64,000 nt of DNA. Origin: Octopus vulgaris (taxonomy: Eukaryota). Both the position numbers and the translations under genes were made by a program. The DNA lies in contig OX597816.1 of NCBI GenBank assembly GCA_951406725.2, forward strand, positions 87,978,001 through 88,042,000. The letters run 5' to 3'. The notes beneath the pieces are model-generated. The model was not told the origin of the DNA and searched no databases. It saw nothing but the letters and a program-made list of their open reading frames with translations. Shown piece by piece: positions 2,764-64,000 of the stretch (position 1 is its first letter; each line of letters starts with the position of its first letter).

Positions 2764-3030
2764 ATATTGGACTCGTACACTGTTTGGACTGTTTCCAAAT
2801 GAATTTTTATCTATTTTTCAGCTAAAACAGTCTCCAGTTCTTGTAGTGATGATGGTGGTGGATATCGACTCCTTACTTGTTTTTCTAAAATGCACCATAA
2901 ATGTTCAATAATATTGAAATCTGGGGACTGTGGTGGCCAGATAAGATGTTCTTCGTACCATTCAGTAACAACTTTAGCTGTGTGAATTGGTGCATTATCG
3001 TCCTGAAAGATTGTGTTTCCCTCCGGAAAC
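2764..3030 (-). mobile_element. Tc1 transposase 3' fragment, same family as 9863-11148
   Basis: FPEGNTIFQDDNAPIHTAKVVTEWYEEHLIWPPQSPDFNIIEHLWCILEKQVRSRYPPP aligns with the 10053 ORF, with an 18-bp deletion. Confidence 0.9.
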
Positions 3031-3099
3031 GTGTGTGTGTGTGTGTGTATGTGTGTGTGTGTGTGTGTATGTGTGTGTGTATGCATATATATATATTTA

Positions 3100-3293
3100 T
3101 GTGTTTGTGTTTGCCTCCCCCATCGCTTGAAAAATTGTTGGTTTGATTACGTCCCCGTAACATAGAGTTCGACTAAGGTCACCGATAGAATGAATACCAG
3201 GCTTAAAAAAAGTTCTGGAATCGATTTCGTCGCTGAAACCCGGGGCCCATGCTGCCCACAGTGCAATGATTAAAATGAGTAAAGAATAAAAGA
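3100..3293 (+). mobile_element. SINE family B, 3' part (diverged)
   Basis: acgtccccgtaac...accgatagaatgaataccaggctt matches the copy at 54133-54484. Confidence 0.7.
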
Positions 3294-4673: not shown

Positions 4674-4906
4674 AAGGCGGCAAGCTAGCAATAACGTTAG
4701 CACACCGGGCAAAATGCTTAGCGGTAATTTCGTCTGCCACTACGTTCTGAGTTCAAATTTCGCCGAGGTCGACTTTGCTTTTCATCGTTTCGAGGTCGAT
4801 TAAATAATTACCTGTTACGCATTGGGGTCGATGTAATCAACTTAATCTCCTTGTCTGTCCTTGTTTGTTCTCTCTATGTTTAGCCACCTGTGGGCAATGA
4901 AGAAAT
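4674..4906 (+). mobile_element. tRNA-derived SINE family A, tail-1
   Basis: aaggcgg head with A box and gagttcaaatt B box, gctttTcatc...ggtcgat...ggggtcgat core (Nin/Deu-like by recall), tgtcc...tgtgggcaatgaagaaata tail. Confidence 0.9.
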
Positions 4907-7550: not shown

Positions 7551-7783
7551 AAGGCGGCGAGCTGGCAGAGACGTTAGCACGCCGGGTGAAGTGCTTCGCG
7601 TTATTTCGTCTGCCGCTACGTTCTGAGTTCAAATTCCACCGAGGTCAACTTTGCCTTTCATCCTTTCGGGGTCGATTAAATAAGTACCAGTTACGCACTG
7701 GGATCGATATAATCGACTTACTCCGTTTGTCTGTCCTTGTTTGTCCCTGTATGTTTAGCCCCTTGTGGGTAATAAAGAAACAC
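7551..7783 (+). mobile_element. SINE family A, tail-1, with 24-bp TSD
   Basis: Full match; TSD atacatattYatatatagagatgt at 7527-7550 and 7784-7807. Confidence 0.92.
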
Positions 7784-9862: not shown

Positions 9863-11148
9863 CAGGGGTTGGACAAAATGATGGAAGCACCTAGCATCAC
9901 AGCATCATAATTTTGAACTATCTATAAAACCATCAAATGCTTGTTAATTTTTATGTTATTTGATATATTATTCGCGTTGCTTAACATGTTTTTGCTAAAA
10001 TTGCTGTCTCTTTTCAGATATCATCAGAAAAAGGTAATTAAAATTCATTAAAATGACAGATCTATCGGACTTTCAAAGAGGTCAAATTGTTGGTGCTCGT
10101 ATGGCAGGCGCTAGCGTAAAGAAAACAGCCGAAATGTTTGGTGTATCAAGAGGTACTGTCTCGAAAGTAATGACAGCCTTTGAGAAAGAGGGAAAAACCT
10201 CCTCGTCGAAACAAAACTCCGGAAGAAAACCAAAACTTTCACATGGGGATCGTTGGACTCTTACGCGAATCGTTAGAAAGGATCACAAAAGAACAGCTCA
10301 CAAAATTACTGCAGAGCTTAATCACTACATCGAGAACCCAGTTTCCACAAAAACTGATCGCCGGGAGCTGCACAAAGCCGGATTTCACGGAAGGGCTGCA
10401 ACCAGAAGACCACTACTTTCAAAAACAAACGTTGCAAAGCGTTTAGAGTGGAGTAAAAACCTACAGGATTGGTCCCTAGAGCAGTGGAATAATGTTATTT
10501 TCTCGGACGAGTCATCCTTTACCTTAATTCCGACTACCAGTCGAGTATACGTGTGGAGACAGTCAAAAGATGCATTTGGCCCAGACTGCTTTCTTCTAAC
10601 TGTTAAACATGGCGGAGAATCTGTGATGATCTATGGTGGGTGGGTGGGGCGTATATCTAGGAAATCCGCCAGCCCAATGGTTTCCCTTCATGGCAGAATT
10701 AATAGTGAAAACTATTTAAGCATTTTGTCTGATCAAATTCCTCCTATGGCTGCGGAACTGTTTCCGGTGGCAAACGCAATCTTTCAGGACGATAGTGCAC
10801 CAATTCGCACAGCTAAAGTTATTACTGAATGGCACGAGGAACATTCTTGTAAAGTTGAACATCTTATCTGGCCACCATATTTCCCGGATCTCAATATTAT
10901 TGAACATTTATCGTGCATTTTAGTAAAACAAGTAAGTAGTCGATATCCTCCACAATCATTACTACAAGAATTAGAGACTGTTTTAGCTGAAGAATGGACA
11001 AAAATTCCTTTCGAAACAATTCAAACTTTGTACGAGCCAATAGCTAGTAGAATTCAAGCTGTAATTACTGCCCAAGGCGGTCCTACCCCACATTAAAATA
11101 AATTTGTTTGAAATTTTAAGGTGTTTCCATTATTTTGTCCAACCCCTG
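9863..11148 (+). mobile_element. Full-length Tc1-family DNA transposon (1286 bp)
   Basis: 30-bp TIRs caggggttggacaaaatRatggaaRcacct (2 mismatches); TA target duplication at 9861-9862 and 11149-11150; single transposase ORF. Confidence 0.97.
10053..11096 (+). CDS. Tc1-like transposase, 347 aa, DD36E triad
   Basis: HTH N-terminus, SGRKPKL, FSDESSF (D1), FQDDSAP (D2), PDLNIIE (E) with 36 residues between D2 and E; no stop codons. Confidence 0.93.
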   Translation: MTDLSDFQRGQIVGARMAGASVKKTAEMFGVSRGTVSKVMTAFEKEGKTSSSKQNSGRKPKLSHGDRWTLTRIVRKDHKRTAHKITAELNHYIENPVSTKTDRRELHKAGFHGRAATRRPLLSKTNVAKRLEWSKNLQDWSLEQWNNVIFSDESSFTLIPTTSRVYVWRQSKDAFGPDCFLLTVKHGGESVMIYGGWVGRISRKSASPMVSLHGRINSENYLSILSDQIPPMAAELFPVANAIFQDDSAPIRTAKVITEWHEEHSCKVEHLIWPPYFPDLNIIEHLSCILVKQVSSRYPPQSLLQELETVLAEEWTKIPFETIQTLYEPIASRIQAVITAQGGPTPH

Positions 11149-13544: not shown

Positions 13545-15737
13545 TGCAGCCATGACGAAAAATTGGACCAAACGAGAAAAAATAGATAGTTTGTCATCAG
13601 AGAAAAAAGTTTGTAGAAAAAGAACAGAAAATTCATAAAGGTGAGAATCGAAACCACTTGTGTCAAAATGCAATCAGACACGGGTAGTGACATCACTATC
13701 ATAAATAAAGAAACATAACGACAAATCGGTAAGCTGAAATTATTTAAATCAAATAAAGTAGCATATGGTGTTACAGGAAAGAAATTATATATCTTCGGCG
13801 AAAGTATTTGCAATTTAATTTTTCGGGGTAAAACGAAAAGGACAATCATTTATGTGCTGAAAAAAGTAATCACTAAACCTATTTGGCACAGAATGCATGG
13901 AGTTATTTAAAATGTGCGATATCCCCATTAGTGTTATCTGTGAAAATATAGTCGGCACGGTTAAAAGTTAGAACGAAGTCGAACAACTGAGACAAAAAAT
14001 TGAAAAATTGTTTCCAAATATTTTTTGCGGAGGATTAGGCTGTTTCGCTAAAACGAAAGCGAGGATCACGGTAAAAGAAAAGGCTACACTTGTTTTCAGG
14101 CCCAAACGCAACGTGCGTTTGGGGCGTTGGACCAGGTCAATAAAGAACTAGAAAGACTAAAAAGTCTATCTGTAATTGGAAAAGTCGACCATTCAGACTG
14201 GACAGCTCCGATGGTTTATATGTAAAGAAAAAACAACAACATTAAACTAAGAGTGTGTGCAAACTTTTCAACTGGATTGAGTGACTGTTTAGTCGAACAC
14301 AGTTATCCATCATCAAACCCAGAAGAAGTGTTCTCAAAACTAAATCGAGGAAGAGGCCTATCTATAGATACAGGTAGGGGAAGATTGCGCACACCTTTTA
14401 ACAATCAACACACACCGTGGATTGTATAAATTCAAGCGGCTTCCCTTTGGAGCAAAAGTGGCACCTGCCATATTCCAACAAGTAATGGACATAACGTTAA
14501 ATGATTGCAACTTCGCTATTGCTTCTATCGATGATATTTTGATAAAGAGTGAGTCAGTAGAGCAACACTTCGAACATTATTCGGAAAAATAAATGATTAC
14601 GGGCTTAGACTAACTGGGGGCGAAGGCCAGGCCCACCAAGGGCGACGGCAATACGGAGTATGCCTCCGCCAACGAACATAAAATTGTTACAGGCATTAAA
14701 CTACTACCAAGTATATTTCCCGAACATACACAACGCAACGAGCTGTTAAAAATAGATGCTAAATGGTTTTGGTCACAAAAATGCCAGAAGGCATTTGAGG
14801 AACTGAAAAATATGTTAACTTCAGAATTGTCGCTTTCACGCTTCGATCCGAAGTTGGAAACGATACCGGCAACAGATGCTAGTGAGTACGGAGTAGTGCC
14901 GTACTCCTGTACAGATGTGAAGATGACAGCCAAAAGCTATAGCGCACGCGTCATGGACGCTGTCGCCAGCGGAAAAAAAATTATAGCCAAATTGAAAAAG
15001 AGGCATTGGCGATTATATTTGGCATAAAAAAAGTTCCACGGGTTTATACATGGTAGACAGTTTAGACTACAAAGGGACCATCGCCTTTGCTAGCGATTTA
15101 TGGATCCAAGAAAGGAATCCTAGGTTGCAGCGATGGGGCAGCATATTACTAAACTATGAATACACGATGGAATATTTAACTTCGAAAAAGCTAGGAAATG
15201 CTGACGACTTATCTAGGTTAATACCCAGAAATGGCGAAACATTCGAGGACACAGTAATAGCAGTCCTAAGAGCCGAAGGGGAAATTAAACACATAATGTA
15301 GAACATTGTACAAGAGTTACCAATAACGCTGGAGGAGATAAAGCGTCACGCGTCAAAAGATAGGGTCTTTAATGAAAAAAAAAACAACTCTGTAGCCAAC
15401 TAAAGAAAACAAAAATAGGTTTAGTAAGAAAAAAACAGCAACAGGTAAACATATATTTAACATGGTAGTGGTACCTGAAACTTTACAAAAAAAATTGTTG
15501 AAAGAATTCCATATTGGACATCCGGGGATTGCAAGGATGAAAGCACTTATGTGTATTGGCTGAAGATGGACGAGGAAGTTAAAACCTAGTAAAAGGCTGC
15601 AGAGGATGTGCTCTGGCAATGAAATTGCCTTCTAAAAGATGGGAGTTTTGACCAGAAGTAAAAAGTCCACGGTCAAGACTACATATCAATTTTGCGGTTC
15701 CGCTAAATAGTTATTACTACTTAGTAGTAGTTGACAG
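13545..15737 (+). mobile_element. Decayed Ty3/gypsy LTR-retrotransposon pol (PR-RT-RH-INT)
   Basis: Protease DTGS (13677), RT LPFGAKVAPAIFQ...SIDD (about 14440-14535), RNase H ATDASEYGV and SQIEKEALA, RLQRW, integrase HIGHPG..CRGC and YLVVVD; many stops and frameshifts; no LTRs identified. Confidence 0.92.
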
Positions 15738-17537: not shown

Positions 17538-18836
17538 ACTTGTTTCAGTTATTTGACTGTGGCCATGCTGGGGCACTACATTGAAGGGTTTTAGTTGAAC
17601 AAATGGACCTTAGGACATTTTTTTCAAAGCCTGGTGCTTATTCTATCGGTCGCTTTAGAGGAACCGCTAGGCTGCACGAACGTGAACACACTAACACTGG
17701 TTGTCAAGCTGTGATGGAGGAAAAACACCGACAAACACATACACATGCACACACATACACATACATATGAGGTCTGATTAATAAATATCCGGACTGTTGC
17801 CATAGTAACGAATCTAAAGCAAACAGAGTGAAGCCGCTGGGTAAAAGTTGACCTTAAACTCTGCTGTGCATGTGCACTAAATGTTAATGTTCTAGCTAAC
17901 TTCCACTGTTTATAGCAGTGCTTTGTAGGAAGGTGTGTAGCGTGTGATTATCGCATTGACCATGACAGGGAAAAGTTATCATGACGATACCTGTTCAGAG
18001 ACCTACACAAAGTTGCAGAAAGTGTATGGAGAGGAGTGTATGAGCTGAACACAAGAGTACGAGTGTTTCAAACGTTTCCAAAATGGCCGAAAAAATGTCG
18101 ATATTGACGAATTTTATGGGAGACCCGCAACCAGTAGAACTGAGAAAAAAGAATCGCAGATGTGCGTGCAGCTGTGAGGGAAAATCGTCGAATTATCATC
18201 CATGAGTTATCAGAGGATGTGCATATTAGTTACGATTCAGTTCAGTCCATTATCACAAATTCTGGTATGAGATGCGTGTTTGCTAAGTTTGTGCCAAAAC
18301 TGCTTTCAGCTGACCAAAAAGACACTCGGGTTTCAGTTGCACAAGATCTCCTTGATTGTGTCGAGAACGATGAAAACTTTTTGAAAACTTTGCGTAGGCC
18401 TCTGAGCAGGTATCGCCAAGCTTTTGGCAAAATTTGAGGCAGATTCTCTGTTCAACATTCTCTGTCATTGTCAATGTGACGAACACGCTCTACATACCTT
18501 CCTTTCAAGTACTGCTGTTAACAGCGGAAGTGAGCTAGAACGTTAAAACTTAGTGCGCATGCACAGCCGAGTTCATGGTCAATCTGTGCCATGCAGCTTT
18601 ACTCTGCATGCTTTAGCTTCGTCACTATGGCAACAGTCTAGATACTTATTGATCAGACCACGTATATAGTTATACACGACGAAGTTCTTTCAGTTTCCGT
18701 CTACCAAATCCACTTACAAAGCTTTGATCGGCCCGAGACTATAGTAGAAGAAGCTTACACAGAGTGCCACGCAGTGGGTCCGAACTCTTAAGCATGTGGT
18801 TCTGAAGCAAGCTTCTTACCACACAACCACACCTGC
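17538..18836 (-). mobile_element. SINE family B interrupted by the mariner derivative at 17768-18662
   Basis: 3' part at 17538-17767 and 5' part at 18663-18836 join into the family consensus. Confidence 0.85.
17768..18662 (+). mobile_element. Non-autonomous mariner made of two inverted left ends
   Basis: TA-flanked; inverted arms >200 bp; plus strand encodes a decayed HTH through FVPKLL; minus strand repeats the N-terminus MTENVEQRICLKFCQKLG. Confidence 0.9.
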
Positions 18837-20237: not shown

Positions 20238-21049
20238 CCGTATGTACACCTGTAAAAGTTGAATTTTCTAGACCATTTTTAGGTGAAATTTATGGGGGGT
20301 CGACTCTTACATGGACACTACTTTTGAGGGGCTGAAACTTAAGCTAGACTCCGAAGTACCGTATCAGTAGCAGAAGCCCAACTAATGATGATGATGATGA
20401 TTATACAAGCCTCTAAAAGATGAAATTGCATGAATGTCGACAATGAAGGAAGTAACTGTCATCTCGATAGTTTTAGGGATAATGGGATCATTAACAACTA
20501 GGTCTGAGAAATTTGTTGGAGACCTTGGGATTTGGGGTGAGGTAGTATATGCTCAGAAAATCCGCTCTGTTGAGGACAGCAAGGATTTTGAGATTAGTAC
20601 TTGGATGTCAAGTATCATGGAAAGAGACGCCTGTAAGACATTTGAAAACAGGTTTCTGTTTGCACTTGCTCAGTGCAAATGAAATCGAGATTGCAGTGAA
20701 ATAGAAAAATATGCTTGCAGCATATCCTGTGCATGCATTTTAGTAATGGTGATATAGCACCCATCAACAGATGTGTAGTGCTCACTGTTATATGGTACTT
20801 TACTATAAATACTGAGCATTCCATTATAAGCACCGTGCATTCCACCTATTGTGCAGGTCACAGAATTTTGTAACAGTATTATTTCTACGTACAATATAAT
20901 ATGGTACCTTGACCCACAAATGTTTTCCTGCTGTTCGTGAAATACTAGGGTCCACTTTTATATGGATCTATGGAAACTTCCCAATTCTTTACCCCAAAAT
21001 AGGGGTCGACGTTTACATGAGATCGACTATTACTCGAGTATATATACGG
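20238..21049. mobile_element. pogo/Tc1-type MITE, TA-flanked
   Basis: ccgtatgtacacctgtaaaagttga vs reverse complement ccgtatatatactcgagtaatagtcga; repeated subterminal ggggtcgacnnttacatg. Confidence 0.6.
20401..20705 (+). mobile_element. RLE LINE (R4/Dong-like) 3' fragment nested in the MITE
   Basis: YKPLKDEIA*M..KEVTVISIVLGIMGS...AQK/ALLRTARILRLVLG immediately after (GAT)n. Confidence 0.7.
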
Positions 21050-31773: not shown

Positions 31774-32162
31774 CTTTTACTTGTTTCAGTCATTTGACAG
31801 CGGCCATGCTGGAGCACCGTCTTTAATCGAGCAACTCGACCCCGGGACTTATTCTTTGTAAGCCCAGTACTTATTCTATCGGTCTCTTTTTTGCCGAACC
31901 ACTAAGTGACGGGGACGTAAACACACCAGCATCGGTTGTCAAGTGATGCTAGGGGGACAAACACAGACACACAAACACACACACATATATATATATATAC
32001 GTCAGGCTTCTTTCAGTTTCCGTCTACCAAATCCACTCACAAGGCATTGGTCGGCCCGGGGCTATAGCAGAAGACACTTGCCCAAGATGCCACGCAGTGG
32101 GACTGAACCCGGAGCCATGTGGTTGGTTAGCAAGCTACTTACCACACAGCCATTCCTGCGCC
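31774..32162 (-). mobile_element. SINE family B, full length
   Basis: Head ggcgcaggaatggctgtgtggtaag...gggttcagtccc, ttgggcaagtgtcttc, internal (TG)n, tail gactgaaacaagtaaaag. Confidence 0.92.
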
Positions 32163-32238
32163 TATATATATATATATACACTTAGAAATATATGTATATA
32201 TCTACATACAAATATATATATATACATGTACATATGTT

Positions 32239-32622: not shown

Positions 32623-32798
32623 AAACACACACACATATACACGACGGGCTTCTTTCAGATCCGTCTACCAAATCCACTCACTGGGCTTTGGTCAGCCCGA
32701 GGCTATAGTAGAAGACACTTGCCCTAGGTGCCACGCAGTTTGACTGAACCCGGAACCACGTGGCTGGTAAGCTATTTACCCCACAGCCACTCCAGCGC
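32353..32798 (-). mobile_element. SINE family B, full length
   Basis: Colinear with 31774-32162. Confidence 0.9.
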
Positions 32799-33701
32799 GT
32801 ATATATTATATGCATACATTTGCGGGTATGTGTTAGTATGGATGATGTCTGTAAGCGTATATGTGCATAAACCTGCATACATACATCTATCCATACATGC
32901 ATGCATACATGCATACATACATACATACATACATACATACATACATACATACATACATACACACACATACCTACATACATATATGGACATACGTATTTGT
33001 GTATATGTGTATATATATATATGTATATATATGTATATATATATACATGCTCATCGATATATACGCTTATGTACACGCAGACGTTAAACAACAACAACAT
33101 CATCATCATCAACAACAATAACAACAACAAGAGCAATCTTCACTGCTGATACAACAGTATCGATACGGTTCCTCATCTGACATATTACTGCTCTCCCAAA
33201 ACAGATGTCAGAATCCCTGACGTCAGTAGATTAAGGTAAAGGTTAACAAGATGACCCTCTGGCACCAGAAGTTTACGATTTCTGACAAGGTATACTCCCC
33301 CATACCCTCCCTCTTGCACTTTCTGTCATTTTTCTTTGTTTCTTTCCTTCTTTCTTTCTTTCTCTCTCATTCTCATTCTGCTCCTCCTCTATACAGATGC
33401 ACAGACTTCTGATATACAAGCGTATACGCACACGTAACAAAAATATTTAGAGATGGATATTTTTGTGCATATATGTCTTTGAATATGCTTATAAGTATGC
33501 ACATACATACGTATATACATATACACGCGCATACATACAAACACACACACATATGATCTGAAACACAGACGTTTATAATAATAATGTATGTTGTTGAATA
33601 CGTGTATGTAAGGATGCGTGATTGCTTGAATATTATGAGTAAGTATGCGCACTTATACTTTTGCAGCTCTCTATATGCATGCACTACTCATAATCCACTT
33701 T

Positions 33702-33854: not shown

Positions 33855-33902
<48 letters not shown>

Positions 33903-34099
33903 TGATCATAGAACAAACAACAAATTCGAATCAATGACTTTATGTATAGCTCCATATCTCAAACATTTGATCATATATAAATATTACCATGGTTCTTAAA
34001 CATATAAAAATATACATATATAAAAAACACAGAAGGTAAAAATATATATGCGAATAAAATACAAATATATAGAACGGCCTATCTAAAAGGTAAATACAA

Positions 34100-35198
34100 C
34101 TGACTAAAAATTCAACGAATGTGATTGGCAGAGGGCTGATTCCACCAATTTCTTCGATATTACTATGGGGACATCTGATTCAGCACAGGTGACTGATTTG
34201 GTGGGCCTATACCTCCTTTCGCAGATTAAGGATAGCAAGTAAAAAGAAAATATTTTACTCAGACCCTAGTAGGTCAGAGCTGTCGACGTCTGAAGAAGAA
34301 CGATTAAGAACAGTCGAAGTCATGCATAAGGAACTGGAAATTAGGAATAGGAAGTTTGCAGACGTCGCCAGAGAGTCGGAGGATAATGTCGAAATTGAAA
34401 TAGGAAAGTATAAAAATCTTCTCAGTCGGGATGGCTACAAAGACCAAGTAACACCCGGCCCCGCAAGAAACAACGAACAAAATGAAAGGAAGAACGGTGA
34501 CATATAAAACTTACTCAATTAAGGTAGGAAAAATGGATCATATGACAATAGAGCAAGTGGAGAAGGCACTGAGGCCAATCTGGCAAGAGATAGTATATCT
34601 TGCTACAGGGCCGATATATGGAGAGGTAGAAGTCACATTTAAAAATGAAAACACAGCTAAAAAACACTCGGCGACACCATTAAGGAACGAGGAGGTAATA
34701 ATTCTACCCACGTACCTGGGACAGAGAACGTCTCGAGTAAGGGTAGAAGGAATTCCACCAGAGATAAATGTTGCCTGGATAGTAGCCGCTGTCGTGGTTG
34801 GTACCGAGGACAAGATAGCGGTGCTCCAGGCCACAAAAACGAAGTGTTAACTGGAGAGGCCAAGCGTTGAACATGATTATTCAAGGTTCAAAAAGAGACG
34901 ATAGAAGACATGGTTGAGACGGTAACAGTAAACGAAACAATAATGAATGTAAGGGTGGAGGGCAGAATCCCTCGCTGTTTTAAATGTGGCCTGAAGGGCC
35001 ACATAAGAGCGAAATGCCCCCCACCGATCAAAGAAGCTGAGAAAACGTAAGAAGAATTTCTCCAGGAGAAGCCCCAGGAAGTACAAGAAGAAGAAAGAAT
35101 GGTACCAGTGGAGGCAGAAAAAGAAAAGGCAGAGGAAGAGTGGGAAACCACGGGAAAAAGGAAAGAAGGAAGAGAAAAAGTCCAACGCATACAGAATC
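34100..35198 (+). mobile_element. ORF1/gag-like retroelement copy 1, 5' part (RRM-like + CCHC knuckle), pseudogenised
   Basis: YGEVEVTF...LPTYLGQRTSRVRVEGIPP...W then PRCFKCGLKGHIRAKC (CX2CX4HX4C); frameshifts and a stop; 5' boundary approximate. Confidence 0.8.
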
Positions 35199-35446
35199 TT
35201 TTCCAGTTACTGCAGCATAGCTACCGACTGGACCTGGTTGGCTCTCCATTATTTCGTTTGTAACAACTTCACCATAGTAACCTTTTCCAGTTACTGCAGC
35301 ATAGCTACCGACTGGACCTGGTTGGCTCTCCATTATTTCGTTTGTAACAACTTCACCCACAAATAGGGAAGAAAACAATTAGGCGAAATAACAGTTAACA
35401 ATTCGATAATGCAACAATTCAACAATTCAATAATTAACATTAGTAC
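35198..35446 (-). mobile_element. 5' UTR and first codons (MESQPGPVGSYAAVTGK) of an ORF1 element, with a 76-bp tandem duplication
   Basis: 35198-35273 equals 35282-35357; SYAAV-type motif is typical of L1/Tx1 ORF1 N-termini. Confidence 0.6.
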
Positions 35447-36478
35447 GGTGTTACTTTATTACCCATAAAGGGCCAACAAAGAGGGACAATACAGCACATT
35501 TGGGGACATATAACAAATAAAAAAAAATAAAACTTATGATATAAGGAAAATTGAAAATGAGAAATGAAAATGGTGTTACTTGCCCCACCAAGTAACATCA
35601 CTTACTTTCTTTTCCTCCGTTTTCCAGTTCTTTATATTCTATAGACATTGGTAATTTCCTATGCCGTAGTCTACTTTCCACAGCTCACATTTTCCTTAGT
35701 ACCCTTTTATTTCATTCATTTGTTGTTCTGTTATTAATAAACACGTATGTTCTCCGCCAATACTCTCCTCATCTACTCTACCAACATATACTGTGTTTCC
35801 CCATTCAGTCACCCTTTCAATCAGTTCATCTTCCACGTCCTCATACAGTACATACGCAAAACAAACAGCGGGAGGGGAAGTTTGTGAATTATTGTGTAAG
35901 TGTTCTTTCTTGTTTATATGTTGGAGGGGAGTGGGAAGGCTTAGTGTCTGCAGGGAGAGGGTGGGACAAAGTGGATATGGGTGGGCATTGGGTAGTTGTA
36001 GGGAGGGATTCTGTATGCGTTGGACTTTTTCTCTTCCTTCTTTCCTTTTTCCCGTGGTTTCCCACTCTTCCTCTGCCTTTTCTTTTTCTGCCTCCACTGG
36101 TACCATTCTTTCTTCTTCTTGTACTTCCTGGGGCTTCTCCTGGAGAAATTCTTCTTACGTTTTCTCAGCTTCTTTGATCGGTGGAGGGCATTTCGCTCTT
36201 ATGTGGCCCTTCAGGCCACATTTAAAACAGCGAGGGATTCTGCCCTCCACCCTTACATTCATTATTGTTTCGTTTACTGTTACCGTCTCAACCATGTCTT
36301 CTATCGTCTCTTTTTGAACCTTGAATAATCATGTTCAACGCTTGGCCTCTCCAGTTAACACTTCGTTTTTGTGGCCTGGAGCACCGCTATCTTGTCCTCG
36401 GTACCAACCACGACAGCGGCTACTATCCAGGCAACATTTATCTCTGGTGGAATTCCTTCTACCCTTACCCGAGACGTT
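35447..36478 (-). mobile_element. ORF1 element copy 1, 3' part (inverted): knuckle, charged linker, C-terminal domain, 3' UTR and tail
   Basis: 36007-36478 is the reverse complement of 34727-35198; ORF 35696-36106 continues the frame; ends ttgttggccctttatgggtaataaag. Confidence 0.85.
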
Positions 36479-37690
36479 GACTGCTGATATATTACAAATG
36501 AGAGAAATAAAACTAGACGAGAAGAAACTGAAAAGATTTAACGAACTTATAGTAAAGGAAGGTGACAGCCTGAGGTTGACCCCGCCGAAAGAAGTGACAG
36601 AAAATACAACTAAAATGACAGTAATTTATAGAACGCTGTCCACAGCAACCAAAATGATCGAAATAGCTACAGCAGAAGCAGTAGAAGAATGTCTAAAGGC
36701 CATTAAAAGCCTCACGACATTCTATGCTAGAAGCAAGAAATACGGCACAGTGGAGGTTTTTTTCGCGAGCGAACAAAGAAGCGATAAAGTACTCCACTGT
36801 GCCGTTGAGGTTGTCTGAGAGGGTGACACTGCCAACCAACTGTGGCAAACGTGCGGCCAGAATTAGAATTGGCAGAGTGACCCCAGAGATTGACGAGGCG
36901 TGGCTGGTGGCAACCATCCTCTACAACACGGAGGAAGAAACGAAAATTCTGAAAGTCAGAAGAACAACGGAGATAAACTGATGGGGACACGTCCTCGAGG
37001 TGACGGTCCAAATGAGTTTACCGGATCTACATAAAATTGTAGAGGAGGTTGTGTAGCCCGAGGAGATGAAACTAAGAGTGGTAGTGGAGGAGCAAAGGCC
37101 AGTAGACGAAAAGAAAATAGAAAATGTGGAAGAAAAGTGTATGGTAGGGAAGAGAAAGAAGAAAAGAGAGGGAAACGTGGACTCACCACCTAAGAGTCCG
37201 CTGAAAAAGAGAGAGGAAAACGTAGAGGAGACTCAGGGTGTGATATCAGCTATACCAATAGAGGAGAAAGTGAATGTGCAGAAAAGAAAGGAAGAAAGAA
37301 GGGAGATGCCAACAACATCAAGTGGGAAAGATACAGAGAAAATCAGACACCGATACCAGTAATTAGCACGGAGGAGAAAGTGAAGGTGCAGAAAAGAAAG
37401 GAAGAGAGATGCCAACAACATTGGGTGAGAGAGATGCAGAGAAGAAAGAGATGGCGATACCAGTAACATCAGAAGAGAATAATAATGGAAAACAGGAAGA
37501 AGTGCAGTAAGGGAAACACTTACGGACTATGATAGAGTATAAAAGAAGTGTAGACATTGAGAAAAAAATCACTAAGATGAAACATGTAATTAGGATTAAA
37601 TTAGCGGCGAATGTTTGTAACGAAGGCTGTAGAGCAGTCTTGCTTGAGAAAGAGAAAGGAGAGAAGTTGAAGGAAATGTTTGGAGAGAAT
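36479..37690 (+). mobile_element. ORF1 element copy 2 (divergent paralogue), pseudogenised
   Basis: YGTVEVFF...LPTNCGKRAARIRIGRVTPEIDEAWL aligns with copy 1; knuckle absent; ~110-bp internal tandem repeat at 37261-37466. Confidence 0.75.
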
Positions 37691-37735
37691 ATAAAAAGAT
37701 GGGCTACAGCAAATATTCTACTCAATACCACAGAT

Positions 37736-38105
37736 TTGTTTGTCAGTTGTTTGACCTTAACCATTTGAGCATGTCCCTTAGTGGCTGAAGATATACCATC
37801 TCCGATCACGAGCAGAAGTAGTTGGGAGCATGATAGCCATGTGTTAAAAATAATTATTTAGGGTTTGAATAATTCACTCCTGGAAACATGGGTGTTTCGT
37901 TTAACATCCTTAAACAACCCTTATTCAGGGACCTTTTGAGCGGGATGGGCTTCTCCATCTGAAGAAAATTCTAACTGGGCCCCGCCTGCAAGATCACCAT
38001 GTCGCGCACATATGGTTGTGATGCATGTGCCTGATACATCCTTATCAAACAGGTAATCAGGATAGGCTTCGCATCATTTTGATGGCAGGCACTGCTCCCT
38101 CACTC
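37736..38105 (+). mobile_element. Retroposon family D (probable LINE 3' UTR or SINE) ending in (AAT)n
   Basis: Homologous to 51866-52285; both end ctcactc(aat)n. Confidence 0.75.
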
Positions 38106-39986: not shown

Positions 39987-40899
39987 CGCGGGGTACCCTA
40001 AAGTAACCGGAAACGTTCACTGTGGGGCAAGCCAGTCGTAGTTCAGACTTCCGCTGCTACAAGCCACTTGATGCAACCCTCAGACATCAGTCCACTGACT
40101 GGCGATGTCGAGCGGGGTCGTACTGCCACGTGGTAAGTCATTGTTTTGCAATGCTCTTCCATGTTCGTCGATTTTTGCGATGGCTGAAACGAAAGAAACA
40201 GCGTGCTTCCGTGAAAGTCTGTTTTCTGCTGTGGAAAAAGGCGGCCGAAACACTTGTTTTTTCATGCTTCAAACAGATTACAAGGACTCTGCCATGAGCT
40301 AAACACAAGTTTACGAGTGGTTCCTCATGCTTTAGAAATGGTCACTCGTTGCTTGAAGGCTAACCTCGTTCAGGGCGACCGTATCCTGAAGCTCCTGCTA
40401 ACAAATTTCCAGCGAGGAATTGCGAATGAGAAGTGTTGCAGCAAATTCTGTGCATCACTGGCTTACGGAAGATCAAAAGCAGTCACGACTGAATGCGGGT
40501 CGTGAACTAAAAGAACAGTTGGAAGTTGGTCCTGGTGATAAAAGCTGCTGCTGCGGCTACAACCCGGAAACGAAGCAGCAATCAAGTCAGTGGAAGCATC
40601 AAAAGGAAGTCCAATATCAAGACGATACTGATTTGCTTCATCGATGCGAAATGAACGAAAAAAACTCCTTAAAGGAAAACGTTTTGTAGATGTGGAAGAG
40701 GTGAAGAAAAAATGATGGAGGCATTAAATGGCATCACTTGGCAAGAGTTTCAGGACTGCTTCGAACAATGAAAAGCGCGTCTGAACTGATGAGTTGCTTC
40801 AAACAGAGAATACCTTGATGGCGATAAAGGTTTAAACATGTAAAACTTAGTGAATAAATTAATATTGCAAAATTCCAGTTTCTTTTGTGTAGCCCCTCG
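39987..40899 (+). mobile_element. Internally deleted, decayed mariner inserted in an old SINE
   Basis: Degenerate TIRs cgcggggtaccctaaagtaaccggaa / ttccagtttcttttgtgtagcccctcg; peptides TQVYEW, LTEDQK, GYNPETKQQSSQW, LKGKRFVDVEEVK. Confidence 0.85.
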
Positions 40900-48537: not shown

Positions 48538-48582
48538 ATAGCTGGTAGTAAATCTTTTCGTTTGTTAATATGGTCAAAAGTT

Positions 48583-49140
48583 AAGGCGGTGAGCTGGCAG
48601 AAACGTTAGCACGCCGGACGAAACGCATAGCGGTATTTCGTCTGGCGTTACGTTCTGAGTTCAAATTCGGCCGTGGTCGACTTTGCCTTTCATCCTTTCG
48701 GGGTCGATAAATTAAGCACCAGTTACGCACTGGGGTCGATGTAATCGATTTAATACCTCTGTCTGTCCTTATTTGTCCCCTCTATGGGTAATAAAGAAAT
48801 AGGTATTTCGTCTACCGTTACGTTCTGAGTTCAAATTCTGCCGAGGTCGACTTTGCCTTTCATCCTTTCGGGGTCGATACATTAAGTACCAGTTACGTAC
48901 TGGAGTTGATATTATCGAGTTAATCCGTTTGTCTGTCCTCTCTGTGTTTAGCCCCTTGTGGGTAGTAAAGAAATAGGTATTTCGACTGCCGCTGCGTTCT
49001 GAGTTCAAATTCTGCCGAGGTAGACTTTACCTTTTATCCTTTCCGGGTCCATAAATTAAGTACCAGTTACGTACTGGGGTCAATCTAATCGACTGGCCCC
49101 CTTCCCCAAAATTTCGGGCCTTGTGCCTAGAGTAGAAAAG
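48583..49140 (+). mobile_element. SINE family A trimer (tail-1, tail-1, tail-2) within one 16-bp TSD
   Basis: Units restart at ggtatttcg (48802, 48976); TSD aatatgKtcaaaagtt at 48567-48582 and 49141-49156. Confidence 0.92.
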
Positions 49141-51858: not shown

Positions 51859-51865
51859 ACTTTTT

Positions 51866-52285
51866 TTGCTTGTCAGTTGTTTGACCTTAACCAGTTGAGC
51901 ATGTCCCTTAGTAGCTGACTATATGTGCATCTCTGATCACAAGCAGAAGTAGGGTGGGGAGCATCATAGCCGTGTGTTGAAAGGAATTATTAGAGTTTTG
52001 AATAATTAACTTTTGGAAAAATGGGTAGTTTGTTCAACATCCTTAAACAAACCTTATTCAGGGACCTTTTGAGCGGGATGGGTTACTCGACCCGAAGAAA
52101 ATTCTAACTGGGCCCCACCTGCAAGGTCATACGCTGCTTATCTTGATATGAGATCGCCATGTCACGCACATATGGTTGCGATGCATGTGCCTGGTGTACT
52201 CTTTTCAGACGGGTAGTCGTGGTGGGTATACTGGGCTTCGTATATTTTACCCCAGTGTCACTTTGATGTCACTGATCTCTCACTC
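51866..52285 (+). mobile_element. Retroposon family D, second copy
   Basis: Homologous to 37736-38105, with (AAT)n tail. Confidence 0.75.
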
Positions 52286-52576: not shown

Positions 52577-53120
52577 TGCCAACATTATGGAATAACAATA
52601 GAAAAAAGATGGTATAGGCACACACCAGAAAAGGTCACAGAAAACGAGAAAGCAACCATACTCTGGGATATGCCGATACACACAGATAGAGAGATTAAGG
52701 CCAACAGACCAGATATAGTTGTCAGAGATCATGAAGAAAAAAAATGCTTTCTAATTGATGTATCAATACCGGCAGATGACAACGTGTCTATAAAATAAAT
52801 GGAGAAACTCTCAAAATACAAAGACCTGGAAATAGAGGTAACTAGAATGTGGAATCTGAAAACAGAAACAATTCCTATCATAGTAGGTGCATTAGGCATG
52901 ATAAAAACATATTCAGACAAATACATAACAAAAACACCAGGACTTACAAACACATATAACATACAGAAAATTGCACTACTAGGCACTGCACACATCCTAC
53001 GCAGAACGCTTTCCATACAATAACCATCAGAGCATCACAACAAATCACAGCACATACCCAAGGCACACAGAGCTGCGCTCGGTATTGAAGTGAAAGCACG
53101 CTATAAAAATAAAACTACTG
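52577..53120 (+). mobile_element. 5'-truncated RLE LINE (R4/Dong-like), endonuclease domain + 3' UTR
   Basis: ILWDMPIHTDREIKANRPDIVV...LIDVSIP...EKLSKYKDL...IPIIVGALG (PD..D..K..KY); one stop; (AAT)n on both sides. Confidence 0.92.
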
Positions 53121-53132
53121 AATAATAATAAC

Positions 53133-53592
53133 ATGATCGACATGAGCATCCCCTGTGATCATAATATCTCAGCGAAAGAGTTTGACAAGCTCAGAAAATA
53201 TAAAGACCTACTCATTGAAATTGAGAAAATGTGGCATCTCAAGGCGGTTACAATACCAGTGATCGTAGGAGCACTAGGAATGATCAAGAAGGGAACCGAA
53301 AATTATATGAGAATGATCCCTGGCTTACCATCCCTGCAAGAAGTGCAAAAGATTGTCTTAACTGGTACATCACACGTATTGAGAAGAACATTGTCGATGT
53401 GAGAACTGTTGCTGCTCATGTATTTTAATTTAACTTAAAAAAAATTTAAAAAAAAATTAACGAACTATTGAGTTTAATGGCCTACCAATGGTTTAATGGC
53501 CTACCAATGTATACTATGAGTTTCTTTGCCCTAGGAGTCGGGAAGACACTTGGCAAGAAATGGAAGCAAATTTAAAAGAAGAAAAAAAAAGC
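53133..53592 (+). mobile_element. Second, different 5'-truncated RLE LINE (R4/Dong-like)
   Basis: IDMSIPCDHNISAKEFDKLRKYKDL...IPVIVGALG...QKIVLTGT; distinct 3' UTR; (AAT)n flanks. Confidence 0.9.
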
Positions 53593-54132
53593 AATAATAA
53601 TAATAATAATAATAATGATAATAATAATAAATTAACAAATAAATAAATAAATATAATAAAGATTTGGTTTCGTGCCCATATTAGCAATCATTAGTTTTAT
53701 TATTTATTCTGAGATATTCGTTATTTGTTATTATCGTTAGTATTTTGCCTGCTTTGGATATGACATCTTAGCGACTATATAATTACTTGTAGTTTTCAAA
53801 GAGATCGTGTCATTTTATTTTTAATTAGGAAAAAAATATAAATAACAGCAGAGCATTAACAGCTTCTTTAAAGGTAAAAAAAGATGACCTGAATAAAGAA
53901 TTGCAAAGGTGCTGAGAAATTTTCTGACAAGTATGTTTGTAACGTCTGTGTTTGTCTTAACAAATGATTTTAACTTGACACGTAAGATAAAGTTATAGCC
54001 GTTCGGAATGTCACATTTATGACAGATGTCAACCATTGGCTGATGGTATGAAATATTGCCAATGATCCATCCATCCATGCATATACATACATATATATAT
54101 TGATGTGTGTATGTACGCGCGTACAAATAATT

Positions 54133-54670: not shown

Positions 54671-55629
54671 AAAAAGGTAAGGTCCGGAGAGAAGGGTAAG
54701 AATAGTCCGAGAAAAGCACGTGTTGTTGCATGCCTGAAGGCACGTACACACACACATACATACAGGTAATATATATTCTTGTGTCATCTGTGGCAAATAT
54801 GTGATCTAGTTTGCAGTATTTATTATATCTCTAAATGAGCCTACTTTGAAACTTATAATGGAACGCTTCTTCAAGAATTACCCACCAATCTTAAAGTATA
54901 GTGAGTGTAGAAGTATATTCTTTGTGATTTTTCGTTAGAATACTGCATTTCTTTTTCTAATAGATTTAGTTCTTATAATTAGTAGATCGTTTCATCCTTT
55001 CGGGGTCGATAAATTAAGTACCAGTGAAACACTGGGATCGATGTAATCGACTTGCCCTCTCCAAAGAAATCTGAGGCCTTGTGTCTCCAGTAGAAAGGAT
55101 TATTAGTACGACCACATTAACAGTCAATCTCGGTTACTACATTGTTATTCTGCTTCGAAGTGTAATGAACAACAGATTTTTACATCTTTTTCTTCCTCGA
55201 ATTATTGGATAGTTTTTGCCAATTTAGAAGCTATGCGCTTATTTTTAAACCATATTTTTGCGGTAAGTAAAAACATAAAAATAAAAATAAATGAAATAAA
55301 AAAAAAAAACTCACATATTCTCCCAACGAAATGCGAGACAGGAGTTCAAAATCCAACAAGTTATTTTACATTTACATATGTTATTAATGCGTTTAAGAAA
55401 AGGGGAATGATTAATGAAATATATGACATCCTAGTCTTCTCCCACTTATAACATAAACACCACTTTTTAAATTAAAAGCATCCAATGATGTTCTTTTCAT
55501 TTCTTCTGATCAACATAAACCAGAAAATAACCCCTGAACGCTTAAAAGTGTTATTCCATTTCGACCCTTGTTTACGTTTGCTTACCCCTCCCCTAAGTCA
55601 AAAAAGAAAAAAAAGAGGGAAAAAATATA

Positions 55630-56064
55630 GGATTCATATGTTGCTTAGCGACGAACTGTTAAGGGATTCGGCGGAATGGAACATAAAGTGTATTGGAACT
55701 AAAGGGTATGATAACGTGGAGGAACATCACTTGTGTGTAATACCAGATAAGAAGCAGGAGGGAAAATACAAGAGTATATGGTTGGATTTTATTGTTGGGA
55801 GGTAGACTGCAGCTGGAGGTCATTCCAAGACTTTACTACGTACGATAGGTGGTTAGAGGAAACAGGTATCGATGTGTTGGAAGGTTCAGGATTTAAAAAG
55901 TAGAGAATGAGGCCACTCGTAAGTGGGGTGAATGGTTCCATTTCCATTTTTCATATTCATGTCTTCATACATTATAATATTCATTTCTATTTTTTATATA
56001 TGTTTTATGTCCTACATGATTTGTTTTGCCACCTCTATGTTAGCCCGCATGGGTAATAAAAAAA
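55630..56064 (+). mobile_element. ORF1 element copy 3: C-terminal domain, 3' UTR and tail
   Basis: SDELLRDSAEW...HHLCVI parallels EDELIERVTEW...EHTCLL; 3' UTR and tgttagcccgcatgggtaataaa align with the reverse complement of 35447-35605. Confidence 0.65.
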
Positions 56065-56387
56065 CAGATCCTTGTTTTCGTTTCCTTATATTCTTCTGAA
56101 AAAAAAAAAAAGGATCATTATTTAGTATCTCCCTATCTATTTTAGGATACAAAATATTGTAGAGCAAATTAAACGTATATTCCATATTTGATTATGCTAA
56201 TCTTAAGGCAGCCATTTAAATCTACATACATTGATTTTGCATTTCCCAAAATTTGAAGAATCTTTTTATCTTACATTAATACTCAAAAATATGACTTTCG
56301 AAATGAAGGATTAAAATATTTTAGGAGAAACTGATGGAGAATCAAAACGAAAGCAATAATTCCTGTTTTTGCTACATTATATAGCGT

Positions 56388-62760: not shown

Positions 62761-62981
62761 TTGAATCTATTCTTGGATATTGCTCCACTTGTTGGAAATA
62801 ACTTCCAAGTAGCATCTAAATCTTTCACAAATGTTAAAACTTTGAAAATTTTAGAGCTGACAGACAAAGTACTTTAAATGCAAGCTTGGTCTTAATCTTT
62901 TATAGACTTAATGATAGTCACCATCTTTTAAACTAAAACGGCACTATTGATTATTGTAAAAAAATCAACCCAAACAATATA

Positions 62982-63016
62982 GGCGCAGGAGTGGCTCTGT
63001 GGTAAGTAGCTTGCTT
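62982..63016 (+). mobile_element. SINE family B head only
   Basis: ggcgcaggagtggctctgtggtaagtagcttgctt then abrupt loss of similarity. Confidence 0.8.
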
Positions 63017-64000
63017 GCTACTAAGTTGTTGACTCGTATTTTCTACGCTGAGAAAGTAACCTCGTTTGACGTTGAAAAATTGAACGTTTGAAGTACGACC
63101 ACAGATAGGGCATTTGTTTTTTTGGGAGCACAGTGGGATCTGTTGTCCGTATTGTTTATTATTTTTTCGAACAAAGGTCTCCACTGGGTTCCAGGCATTT
63201 GTCTGCCTGTGGTCGTAAAAATGACTCACTTTTTAGTGAGAATTGTGTATGTACTCGGGAGGCGTTTCCCTTCGAAAATTTATCATTTTATGTGACTGTG
63301 TGCACTTCGTGGATTTTACCATTTGGAGTACAACCAGAATTGGAGGAATTTCTTTGCTACTATTTTTGTGCTGCAAGGGATTTTTAACTGTGCCACAAAA
63401 GATTACCAAAGTTGAATTTTGTTGCCATTTGAACTGTGTTCCTTCGTTCTTTATCTCTTGTCTGTCTTTCTGCTCTGTTTTGTGTTTGCATGAGAGACTT
63501 TTATTTGAACATTTTTGATTTTGTTGTGAACTTCTATATTTTAGTTTATTTTATCAATGGCAACCAAATGTAAGAAAGCCTTGGAGTGGCAAATTGTGGC
63601 TCCCAAGGAGTGGCTAAAAAACTATGGTGAGAGAATGGTGGTATTGCGGACCTATTGCAAGGTCCGTGACACCATCTGACTGAAATTGAAGAAGAGTTGG
63701 CAGGGTTTGTGCCAACCTATTCATCCGTAGGGGTGCAAAGTACGCAACGGTGTGCGTGCTTTTCGATAACCCTACGGAGGCTCAGAAATTTGCGAGCCAA
63801 CCTATTGGTGGGAGGAAGACTTTGTTTCTCTCCACTCATGGTGGGCGTAAATTGACAAGAGCCTGGGTGTGTGGGCTGCCGCCCAGTACAGAGGCTAAAT
63901 GGATAGAATATTCTATCCGTCGAGGCCTGGGTAGTGGCCCTGACAGGCTCTTGAATGTAAAAATACTGCCTGCGGTCGATTGGGTCGAGTCAAAAGCAAT
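63017..64000 (+). mobile_element. ORF1 element copy 4: putative 5' UTR and N-terminal ORF1 (ATG 63557), running off the window
   Basis: MVVLRTY and, after a disruption, RGAKYATVCVLF..AQKFASQP...LSTHGGRKLTRAWVCGLPP...W align with copies 1 and 2; not in the ORF track. Confidence 0.7.

Follow-up and report, generated by a model that had tools for sequence, protein, structure and literature searches.

An octopus retroelement family that probably carries only an ORF1-type RNA-binding protein

Can a retroelement that lacks long terminal repeats (a non-LTR element) persist in a cephalopod genome with only the RNA-binding protein of its first open reading frame (ORF1), leaving reverse transcription to another element? 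This question is raised by a 64,000-nt stretch of microsatellite-rich Octopus vulgaris DNA on contig OX597816.1 (hereafter the window, within which all coordinates are given), which contains four decayed copies of one protein family. Its members are built from two RNA recognition motifs (RRMs), followed by a single CCHC knuckle, a linker of low complexity and a small domain at the C-terminus. An earlier sequence-only reading had assigned four loci to one protein type and proposed a "half-LINE", that is, a long interspersed nuclear element (LINE) reduced to ORF1. Both proposals are supported by our analysis, and the copies probably represent a HAL1-like, ORF1-only, non-autonomous LINE lineage of octopods.

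Four decayed loci with a common protein type

Six-frame translation and in-window tblastn revealed an RRM region common to copies 1, 2 and 4 (copy 1 versus copy 2, E = 1.5e-15; copy 1 versus copy 4, E = 6e-8), and the family profile matches all three, at 34536-34844, 36654-37404 and 63720-63917, respectively. Copy 3 is tied to copy 1 by its C-terminal domain (score 52, shuffles averaging 22 and 0 of 2000 reaching that score) and by its 3' untranslated region (UTR; 131 nt, 72% identity, E = 3e-11). The divergent copy 4, whose ORF begins at about 63557, is 59% and 67% identical to the database relative P0025 over two pieces and scores 44.7 bits against the family profile. All four copies contain stops or frameshifts and are dead. 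The limits first given to the loci needed correction, since 34100-34240 belongs to another repeat, copy 1 resembles its relatives from about 34280 onwards, and copy 3 spans 55585-56066.

The single knuckle ascribed to the family is present in copy 1 and absent from copy 2, and copy 4 runs past the window end. The CX2CX4HX4C knuckle of copy 1 (34976-35017) matches Pfam zf-CCHC at E = 0.003, under the curated cut-off, which the database relative P0001 passes. It was seen in copy 1 only, where an inverted duplication of 477 nt presents it twice.

Direct junction of ORF1 to the 3' UTR

Two copies have a 3' end in view, and in both of them ORF1 is joined directly to the 3' UTR, the distance from the stop to the end of AATAAA being 147 nt in copy 1 and 157 nt in copy 3, with no ORF2 between. 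The earlier description of an ORF running into a UTR of about 150 nt with AATAAA and no endonuclease (EN) or reverse transcriptase (RT) therefore stands for these copies, except that no true poly(A) tail follows, a short A run being present at copy 3. On the + strand, the 3 kb past copies 2 and 3 contain no RT or EN motif and no ORF of more than 110 aa. Copy 3 is truncated at the 5' end and flanked by a 22-bp target-site duplication (TSD) with 19 of 22 positions identical. When the upstream 2 kb were shuffled 1000 times this level was never reached, and no other site in the window attains it. Because this TSD encloses a unit running from the C-terminal domain to the UTR, an RNA without ORF2 was itself retrotransposed as copy 3, unless an exact later deletion is invoked.

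A 3' tail shared with a SINE

Both UTRs end in some 45 nt that match the 3' tail belonging to a short interspersed nuclear element (SINE), represented by 19 blast segments in the window, whose head we take, by eye, to be of the tRNA type. With a profile built from six SINE tails, the E value is 5e-6 for copy 1 and 0.016 for copy 3, and neither score was reached in 30 shuffled windows. Meanwhile, the front 100 nt of the UTR match between copies 1 and 3 (0 of 2000 shuffles) but not between the UTR and the SINE, for which 1762 and 905 of 2000 shuffles did as well; the element therefore owns its UTR, and the idea that the tail is merely a truncated SINE insertion could be ruled out. Direct repeats of 24, 18, 13 and 9 bp flank four of the five SINE copies tested, and the TSD of copy 3 falls in this size range. 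SINE and LINE tails in common over 35-61 bp at 72-95% identity are taken to mark a shared RT (PMC11481361).

One candidate for the partner LINE in the window was rejected, namely the LINE 3' end at 52600-53600, which has a different tail and ends in (AAT)n. This end and another at 20434-20682 carry a restriction-like endonuclease motif with no significant Pfam match, and are presumably R4/Dong-like. Five bivalve SINE-LINE tail alignments showed, by eye, no resemblance to the tail of the octopus element. Searches of other sequence collections gave little: the tail pattern had a single match in metagenome contigs (L001), judged to be chance, and none in viral contigs; the search with the P0001 locus gave 589 pattern matches in metagenome contigs and 440 in genome contigs, and that with the P0004 locus 72 in viral contigs, none of which was confirmed.

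Head-to-tail copies 1 and 2 (see below) and SINE direct repeats that begin with GTATT-like letters hint at a target-site preference, the sites being very few. The GTATT-like start was noticed in several SINE repeats. In addition, a head-to-tail SINE tandem lies at 48582-49094, where internal sequence of the same SINE comes directly after the tail.

Protein family, diversity and selection

A family profile made from six RRM-knuckle pieces was searched against 1.84 billion representative proteins and matched 491 clusters at E <= 0.001, with 153 at 1e-10. Thirty of the best 150 clusters were looked up, and all 18 that bear a species name come from Octopus or Argonauta (12 O. bimaculoides, three O. 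sinensis, two O. vulgaris and one Argonauta hians); the other 12 are unnamed. The tree and identity set for the RRM region retained 121 of 154 rows, 33 having been dropped for coverage, copy 4 among them. The median identity of these 121 regions is 29%, and they fall into about 60 groups at 45%, their members being mostly fragmentary; decay and fragments inflate this diversity. Paralogous contigs at least 80% alike were present in all four runs, with 8, 11, 8 and 9 contigs at position 34701.

Over 127 codons, copies 1 and 2 are identical at 0.56, 0.61 and 0.28 of first, second and third codon positions (pS 0.85, pN 0.42), and comparisons with copy 4 gave a similar pattern. Synonymous sites are saturated between the copies and the motifs persist. 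As the earlier reading had supposed, the codon pattern shows that purifying selection acted on the protein during the divergence of the subfamilies; this selection may have preceded or followed the loss of ORF2. Several octopus gene models (P0072, P0101, P0005 and P0150) contain the element ORF fused to LDLa or WD40 exons, or bear names such as EPM2A-interacting or nek3; these fusions and names are probably annotation artefacts or exonisation. Among the best 150 clusters, two gene models have such unrelated LDLa or WD40 domains attached.

Predicted structure and the C-terminal domain

A structure model of an Argonauta protein, for which 76 rows were used and whose pLDDT averages 68 with high values over residues 50-270, matches tandem RRMs, with Sex-lethal as the best Foldseek match (E = 3e-5; 59 matches at E <= 0.001) and VIA values of Z about 9 and rmsd 2.0-2.4 over 75-82 aligned residues. 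Viral structures gave generic RRMs only, and Rfam had no match in the window. Modelling of the C-terminal domain, advised in the earlier reading, yielded a fold and no family name. The predicted order is beta-alpha-beta-beta-alpha-beta (mean pLDDT 74, only one of five models exceeding 61), and the best VIA matches are generic ferredoxin-like folds (Z at most 6.0, rmsd 3.2, 74 aligned). No Foldseek match at E <= 0.001 was obtained for this domain, Atlas feature scores did not exceed 0.76, and two matches among 31 candidates named no family.

The C-terminal domain of copy 2 is 41% identical to that of P0001 and scores 46.5 bits against the domain profile (0 of 500 shuffles), and those of copies 1 and 3, about 25% identical to each other, do not match the profile significantly. 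There may be two types of C-terminal domain.

Structure of the copy 1/copy 2 locus

Copies 1 and 2 are entangled by the 477-nt inverted repeat, whose arms are given in Table 1, and by an 84-nt tandem unit (35195-35357). On the - strand this unit encodes, twice, an ATG-started peptide with the SYAAV motif (35199-35333), for which the N-terminus of P0081, a member of copy 2's subfamily, gave the highest score of all stored proteins (34, a short and modest match). In relatives, the SYAAV motif sits just ahead of the helix that opens the + strand part of copy 2. The motif had been taken as the N-terminus of the family in general; here it belongs to the displaced 5' end of copy 2 rather than to copy 1, and the ORF of copy 4 starts without it. 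Given the P0081-type 5' end on the - strand and the inverted repeat, we infer that the two copies originally lay head-to-tail on the + strand, and that a piece of about 1.3 kb (35199-36478) was then inverted, one arm being duplicated at the same time. Twin priming as the cause of the inversion was ruled out by geometry, because the tail points inward. The O. bimaculoides gene model P0081 consists of two successive pieces of one subfamily, which hints at tandem copies there too.

Own-letter contig depth, which is no copy number, was 67 on the arm against 35-39 in single-locus parts in run X1, 98 against 44-47 in X2, and 10 against 5-8 in X3, and this roughly doubled depth in three runs hints at a genuine duplication. 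The stretch 35307-35395 is covered by several paralogous contigs. One X2 contig follows the window over 34141-34589 and then switches to a paralogue of about 83% similarity, a switch at 34589 that neighbouring contigs in X1 and X3 also suggest; the window's own letters at 34590-34721 were absent from the contigs listed, which alone proves nothing. It is therefore possible that the 5' half of copy 1 combines two paralogues, with the junction near 34590, or is a mis-join, and the reconstruction of copy 1 proposed earlier (34100-35198 plus the reverse complement of 35447-36006) could be a hybrid as well. The part from RRM2 to the tail (36483-35455), on which the ORF1-only claim is based, is contiguous in the window; 57-81% of sampled words from 35400-36480 were present in eight runs, and between RRM2 and the point where the C-terminal domain begins, the 3' half of copy 1 is colinear with P0031.

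Proposed mechanism and alternative explanations

The ORF1-only reading is supported by the same UTR joined to the stop in two divergent copies, the TSD of copy 3, the SINE-type tail and hundreds of octopod relatives. The element would be about 1.5-2 kb long, with a 5' UTR, one ORF1-type gene and a 3' UTR of about 150 nt. It would be transcribed by RNA polymerase II, and its own protein, with two RRMs and a knuckle, would coat the RNA in cis. An autonomous LINE with an apurinic endonuclease (APE-type), most likely L1-Tx1, would supply the ORF2 protein, which would recognise the tail of about 45 nt and insert the RNA by target-primed reverse transcription, and the SINE with the same tail would be moved by the same enzyme. 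The ferredoxin-like C-terminal domain may, speculatively, act as a third RNA-binding or a partner-binding module. Among possible donors, L1-Tx1 is favoured on the strength of the Type I ORF1 (PMC5203782), the TSD length and the 80 L1-Tx1 families of O. vulgaris, 13 of them recently active (PMC13282606). We lean towards a Tx1-derived clade for the element, and no more firmly than that because Type I ORF1 also occurs in CR1, L2 and other clades. The ZCCHC3-type Atlas lead may also point to Tx1, a tie that we did not find in PMC10351740.

Several observations weigh against the ORF1-only reading. Only two 3' ends were seen; no full-length, TSD-flanked copy was seen, no TSD was found around copy 1, and copy 1 lacks even a short A run. 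The 64-kb window contains no partner LINE with the element's tail, and the stem that forms in all five tails is no stabler than shuffles (z-scores -1.2 to 0). The C-terminal domains of copies 1 and 3 do not match the profile of database relatives significantly (19 and 265 of 500 shuffles), so that the absence of ORF2 is shown for their branch and only assumed for that of copy 2. No Pfam match ties the RRMs to any LINE clade, and one Atlas lead points to ZCCHC3 (score 0.88, TM 0.54). No EN or RT family was among the Pfam matches listed for the best 150 of the 491 clusters (for P0101, 5 of 18 families), which is weak evidence because ORF2 is normally a separate protein. The relatives are mostly short fragments, and only 13 stored matches reach at least 300 aa.

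The copies could alternatively be ORF1s of ordinary autonomous L1-Tx1 elements, most of whose genomic copies have ORF2, copies 1 and 3 having each lost it through a deletion or template jump of their own. O. vulgaris has abundant L1-Tx1, whose recent insertions (421, 2.29 Mb in all; PMC13282606) have a mean length of about 5.4 kb, the 3' ends of copies 2 and 4 are outside view, and the lost knuckle of copy 2 attests that internal deletions do occur. The UTR (72%) is conserved above the adjacent coding DNA, not significantly so, and tail exchange could explain this. However, it would take two independent events that both brought the ORF1 stop to one UTR start with no more than about 10 nt of difference, and we regard this explanation as unlikely. 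A mixed case, with an ORF1-only branch for copies 1 and 3 and autonomous relatives for the others, is conceivable. A bolder form of the ORF1-only reading would have an ancient lineage without its own RT since before the Octopus-Argonauta split, split into dozens of subfamilies, capturing a partner ORF2 through a new C-terminal domain that it gained or kept, competing with the major SINE, and with some members now serving as host RNA-binding genes like L1TD1 or ZCCHC3; taken as a whole it is rather doubtful.

Long and apparently intact annotated relatives (P0004 of O. sinensis, 623 aa; P0099 of Argonauta, 527 aa), ZCCHC3 RNA-binding-domain clusters among the Atlas look-alikes and the expansion of CCHC families in cuttlefish (PMC13218726) would suit a fast-evolving, ZCCHC3-like host gene family with processed pseudogenes in the window. 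We consider this very unlikely, since all four window copies are broken with no intact ORF, the SINE-type tail is typical of LINE-recognised RNAs and not of mRNAs, and the RRM regions form many divergent, mostly fragmentary groups; the ORF1-only reading leaves room for a few domesticated members. Gag-only remnants of an LTR or Penelope-like element are the least probable source: the knuckle resembles nucleocapsid knuckles, inverted partial duplications are known for Penelope-like elements (PMC8557442), and a repeat upstream of copy 1 carries what may be a Penelope-like RT motif, but the fold is a tandem RRM and not a capsid, no terminal repeats were found at the element ends (33900-37800), and the TSD and SINE-type tail suit non-LTR retrotransposition. 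Fold and TSD largely refute this reading.

Feature map and other elements in the window

The features are collected in Table 1. The repeat fragment upstream of copy 1 has no Pfam match and no relative in viral contigs; translation of the multi-copy fragment 34040-34240 gives the putative Penelope-like RT motif mentioned above. Copy 2 is cut off at 37694 by a very high-copy repeat, where loose contig ends also lie; this repeat occupies 37694-38060 and 51865-52218, with 78% identity between the two copies. Immediately upstream of 63017-63556, the putative 5' UTR of copy 4, lies the head of a second SINE family (62977-63016), also found at 32129-32167, 32769-32804 and 18805-18836.

In addition, the window contains a nearly intact Tc1-type transposase ORF of about 346 aa at 10038-11096 (HTH_Tnp_Tc3_2, DDE_3) with a related fragment at 2811-3146, a decayed LTR-retrotransposon pol fragment at 14614-15301 (RT_RNaseH_2), and, by eye, Mariner-like transposase fragments at 18144-18437 (weak Pfam match) and 40402-40689.

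Table 1. Positions of the element copies and associated features in the window.
Feature	Position	Strand	Remarks
Fragment of another multi-copy repeat flanking copy 1, not part of it	34108-34239	+	Contig depth high at 34000-34271, sharp drop at 34272
Copy 1, 5' half: N-terminus with KFADV, RRM1, RRM2, knuckle, linker start	34280-35198	+	Frameshifts, stops
Copy 1, left arm of inverted duplication (477 nt): RRM2, knuckle, linker	34722-35198	+	99% complementary to 36007-36483; 4 differences
Copy 2, displaced 5' end: putative 5' UTR, first codons with SYAAV	35199-35446	-	84-nt tandem duplication
Copy 1, 3' UTR (147 nt)	35455-35601	-	Final ~45 nt = SINE-type tail; ends AATAAA
Copy 1, 3' half, inverted: RRM2 end, knuckle, linker, C-terminal domain	35602-36483	-	Stop 35604-35602
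Copy 2, main part: RRM1, RRM2, charged linker, C-terminal domain	36479-37693	+	No knuckle; C-terminal domain 37511-37693
Copy 3, 5' TSD	55563-55584	+	19/22 identical to 56067-56088
Copy 3, 5'-truncated: linker end, C-terminal domain, 157-nt 3' UTR	55585-56066	+	Stop 55901-55903; AATAAA, short A run
Copy 3, 3' TSD	56067-56088	+	
Copy 4: ORF start and RRM region	63557-64000	+	Very divergent subfamily; reaches window end
SINE example with element-type 3' tail	7551-7783	+	Others end near 4906, 7038, 22820, 48795, 48969, 61421

Comparison with known systems

In the literature we found no cephalopod ORF1-only element, Repbase, Dfam and the O. vulgaris Zenodo library lying outside this search, and a search of the PMC13282606 supplement gave neither "ORF1" nor HAL1. 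The family is probably undescribed, and it could be catalogued under a label such as L1-Tx1 or Unknown. If the ORF1-only reading is true, molluscs join the list of hosts, here with a protein of Type I and a C-terminal domain without a named family. The shared tail would offer a direct handle on which LINE drives the abundant octopus SINE, SINEs making up 11.6% of O. vulgaris (PMC13282606). Many octopus gene models called "uncharacterized" or "CCHC-type" would be retroelement copies, which bears on claims of cephalopod gene-family expansion, and deep selection on a cis-acting ORF1 would make a testable system for why non-autonomous elements keep this gene.

As a lead only, the protein resembles ZCCHC3, an Atlas look-alike with two RNA-binding domains and a knuckle, which restricts L1 (PMC10351740); in contrast, the Pfam families listed for 76 members (25 of 50) do not include RBD_ZCCHC3, and the window copies are broken. 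HeT-A (Jockey-derived) and Ag-Sponge (CR1-derived) are likewise bipartite non-autonomous LINEs that retain ORF1 (PMC5786205), and copies 1 and 2, one inferred pair, would have stood head-to-tail as in HeT-A arrays. The octopus element differs from both in that copy 3 is dispersed and TSD-flanked in repeat-rich DNA with no sign of telomeres, the UTR is short, and PRE_C2HC is not among the Pfam matches listed.

Tx1, of the L1-Tx1 group present in octopus (PMC13282606), has the RRM plus CCHC (Type I) ORF1 (PMC5203782) that the octopus protein also has and that is not diagnostic. The Tx1-driven SINEU makes nested and tandem insertions (PMC4494074), which recalls the inferred arrangement of copies 1 and 2. 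Unlike Tx1, the octopus element has no ORF2 at its two visible 3' ends and has one knuckle. To our knowledge, no folded C-terminal domain occurs in Tx1 ORF1.

ORF1-only elements are known in the L1, Jockey and CR1 clades, as HAL1, HeT-A and Ag-Sponge (PMC5786205, PMC3627910). Like HAL1, the octopus element has ORF1 only, would need ORF2 in trans and kept ORF1 coding for long (PMC5786205, PMC3627910). The "half-LINE" label thus serves as a working analogy and not as a statement of type, the protein being Type I rather than that of mammalian HAL1/L1: Transposase_22 (coiled coil, one RRM and C-terminal domain) was absent from the matches listed for the best 150 of the 491 clusters, and the octopus ORF1 instead has two RRMs, a CCHC knuckle and a separate C-terminal domain. 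The host is a mollusc, and the conserved SINE-type tail stands in place of the plain poly(A) of HAL1. The subfamily diversity, inflated by decay as it is, is very high and far above any that we know of for HAL1.

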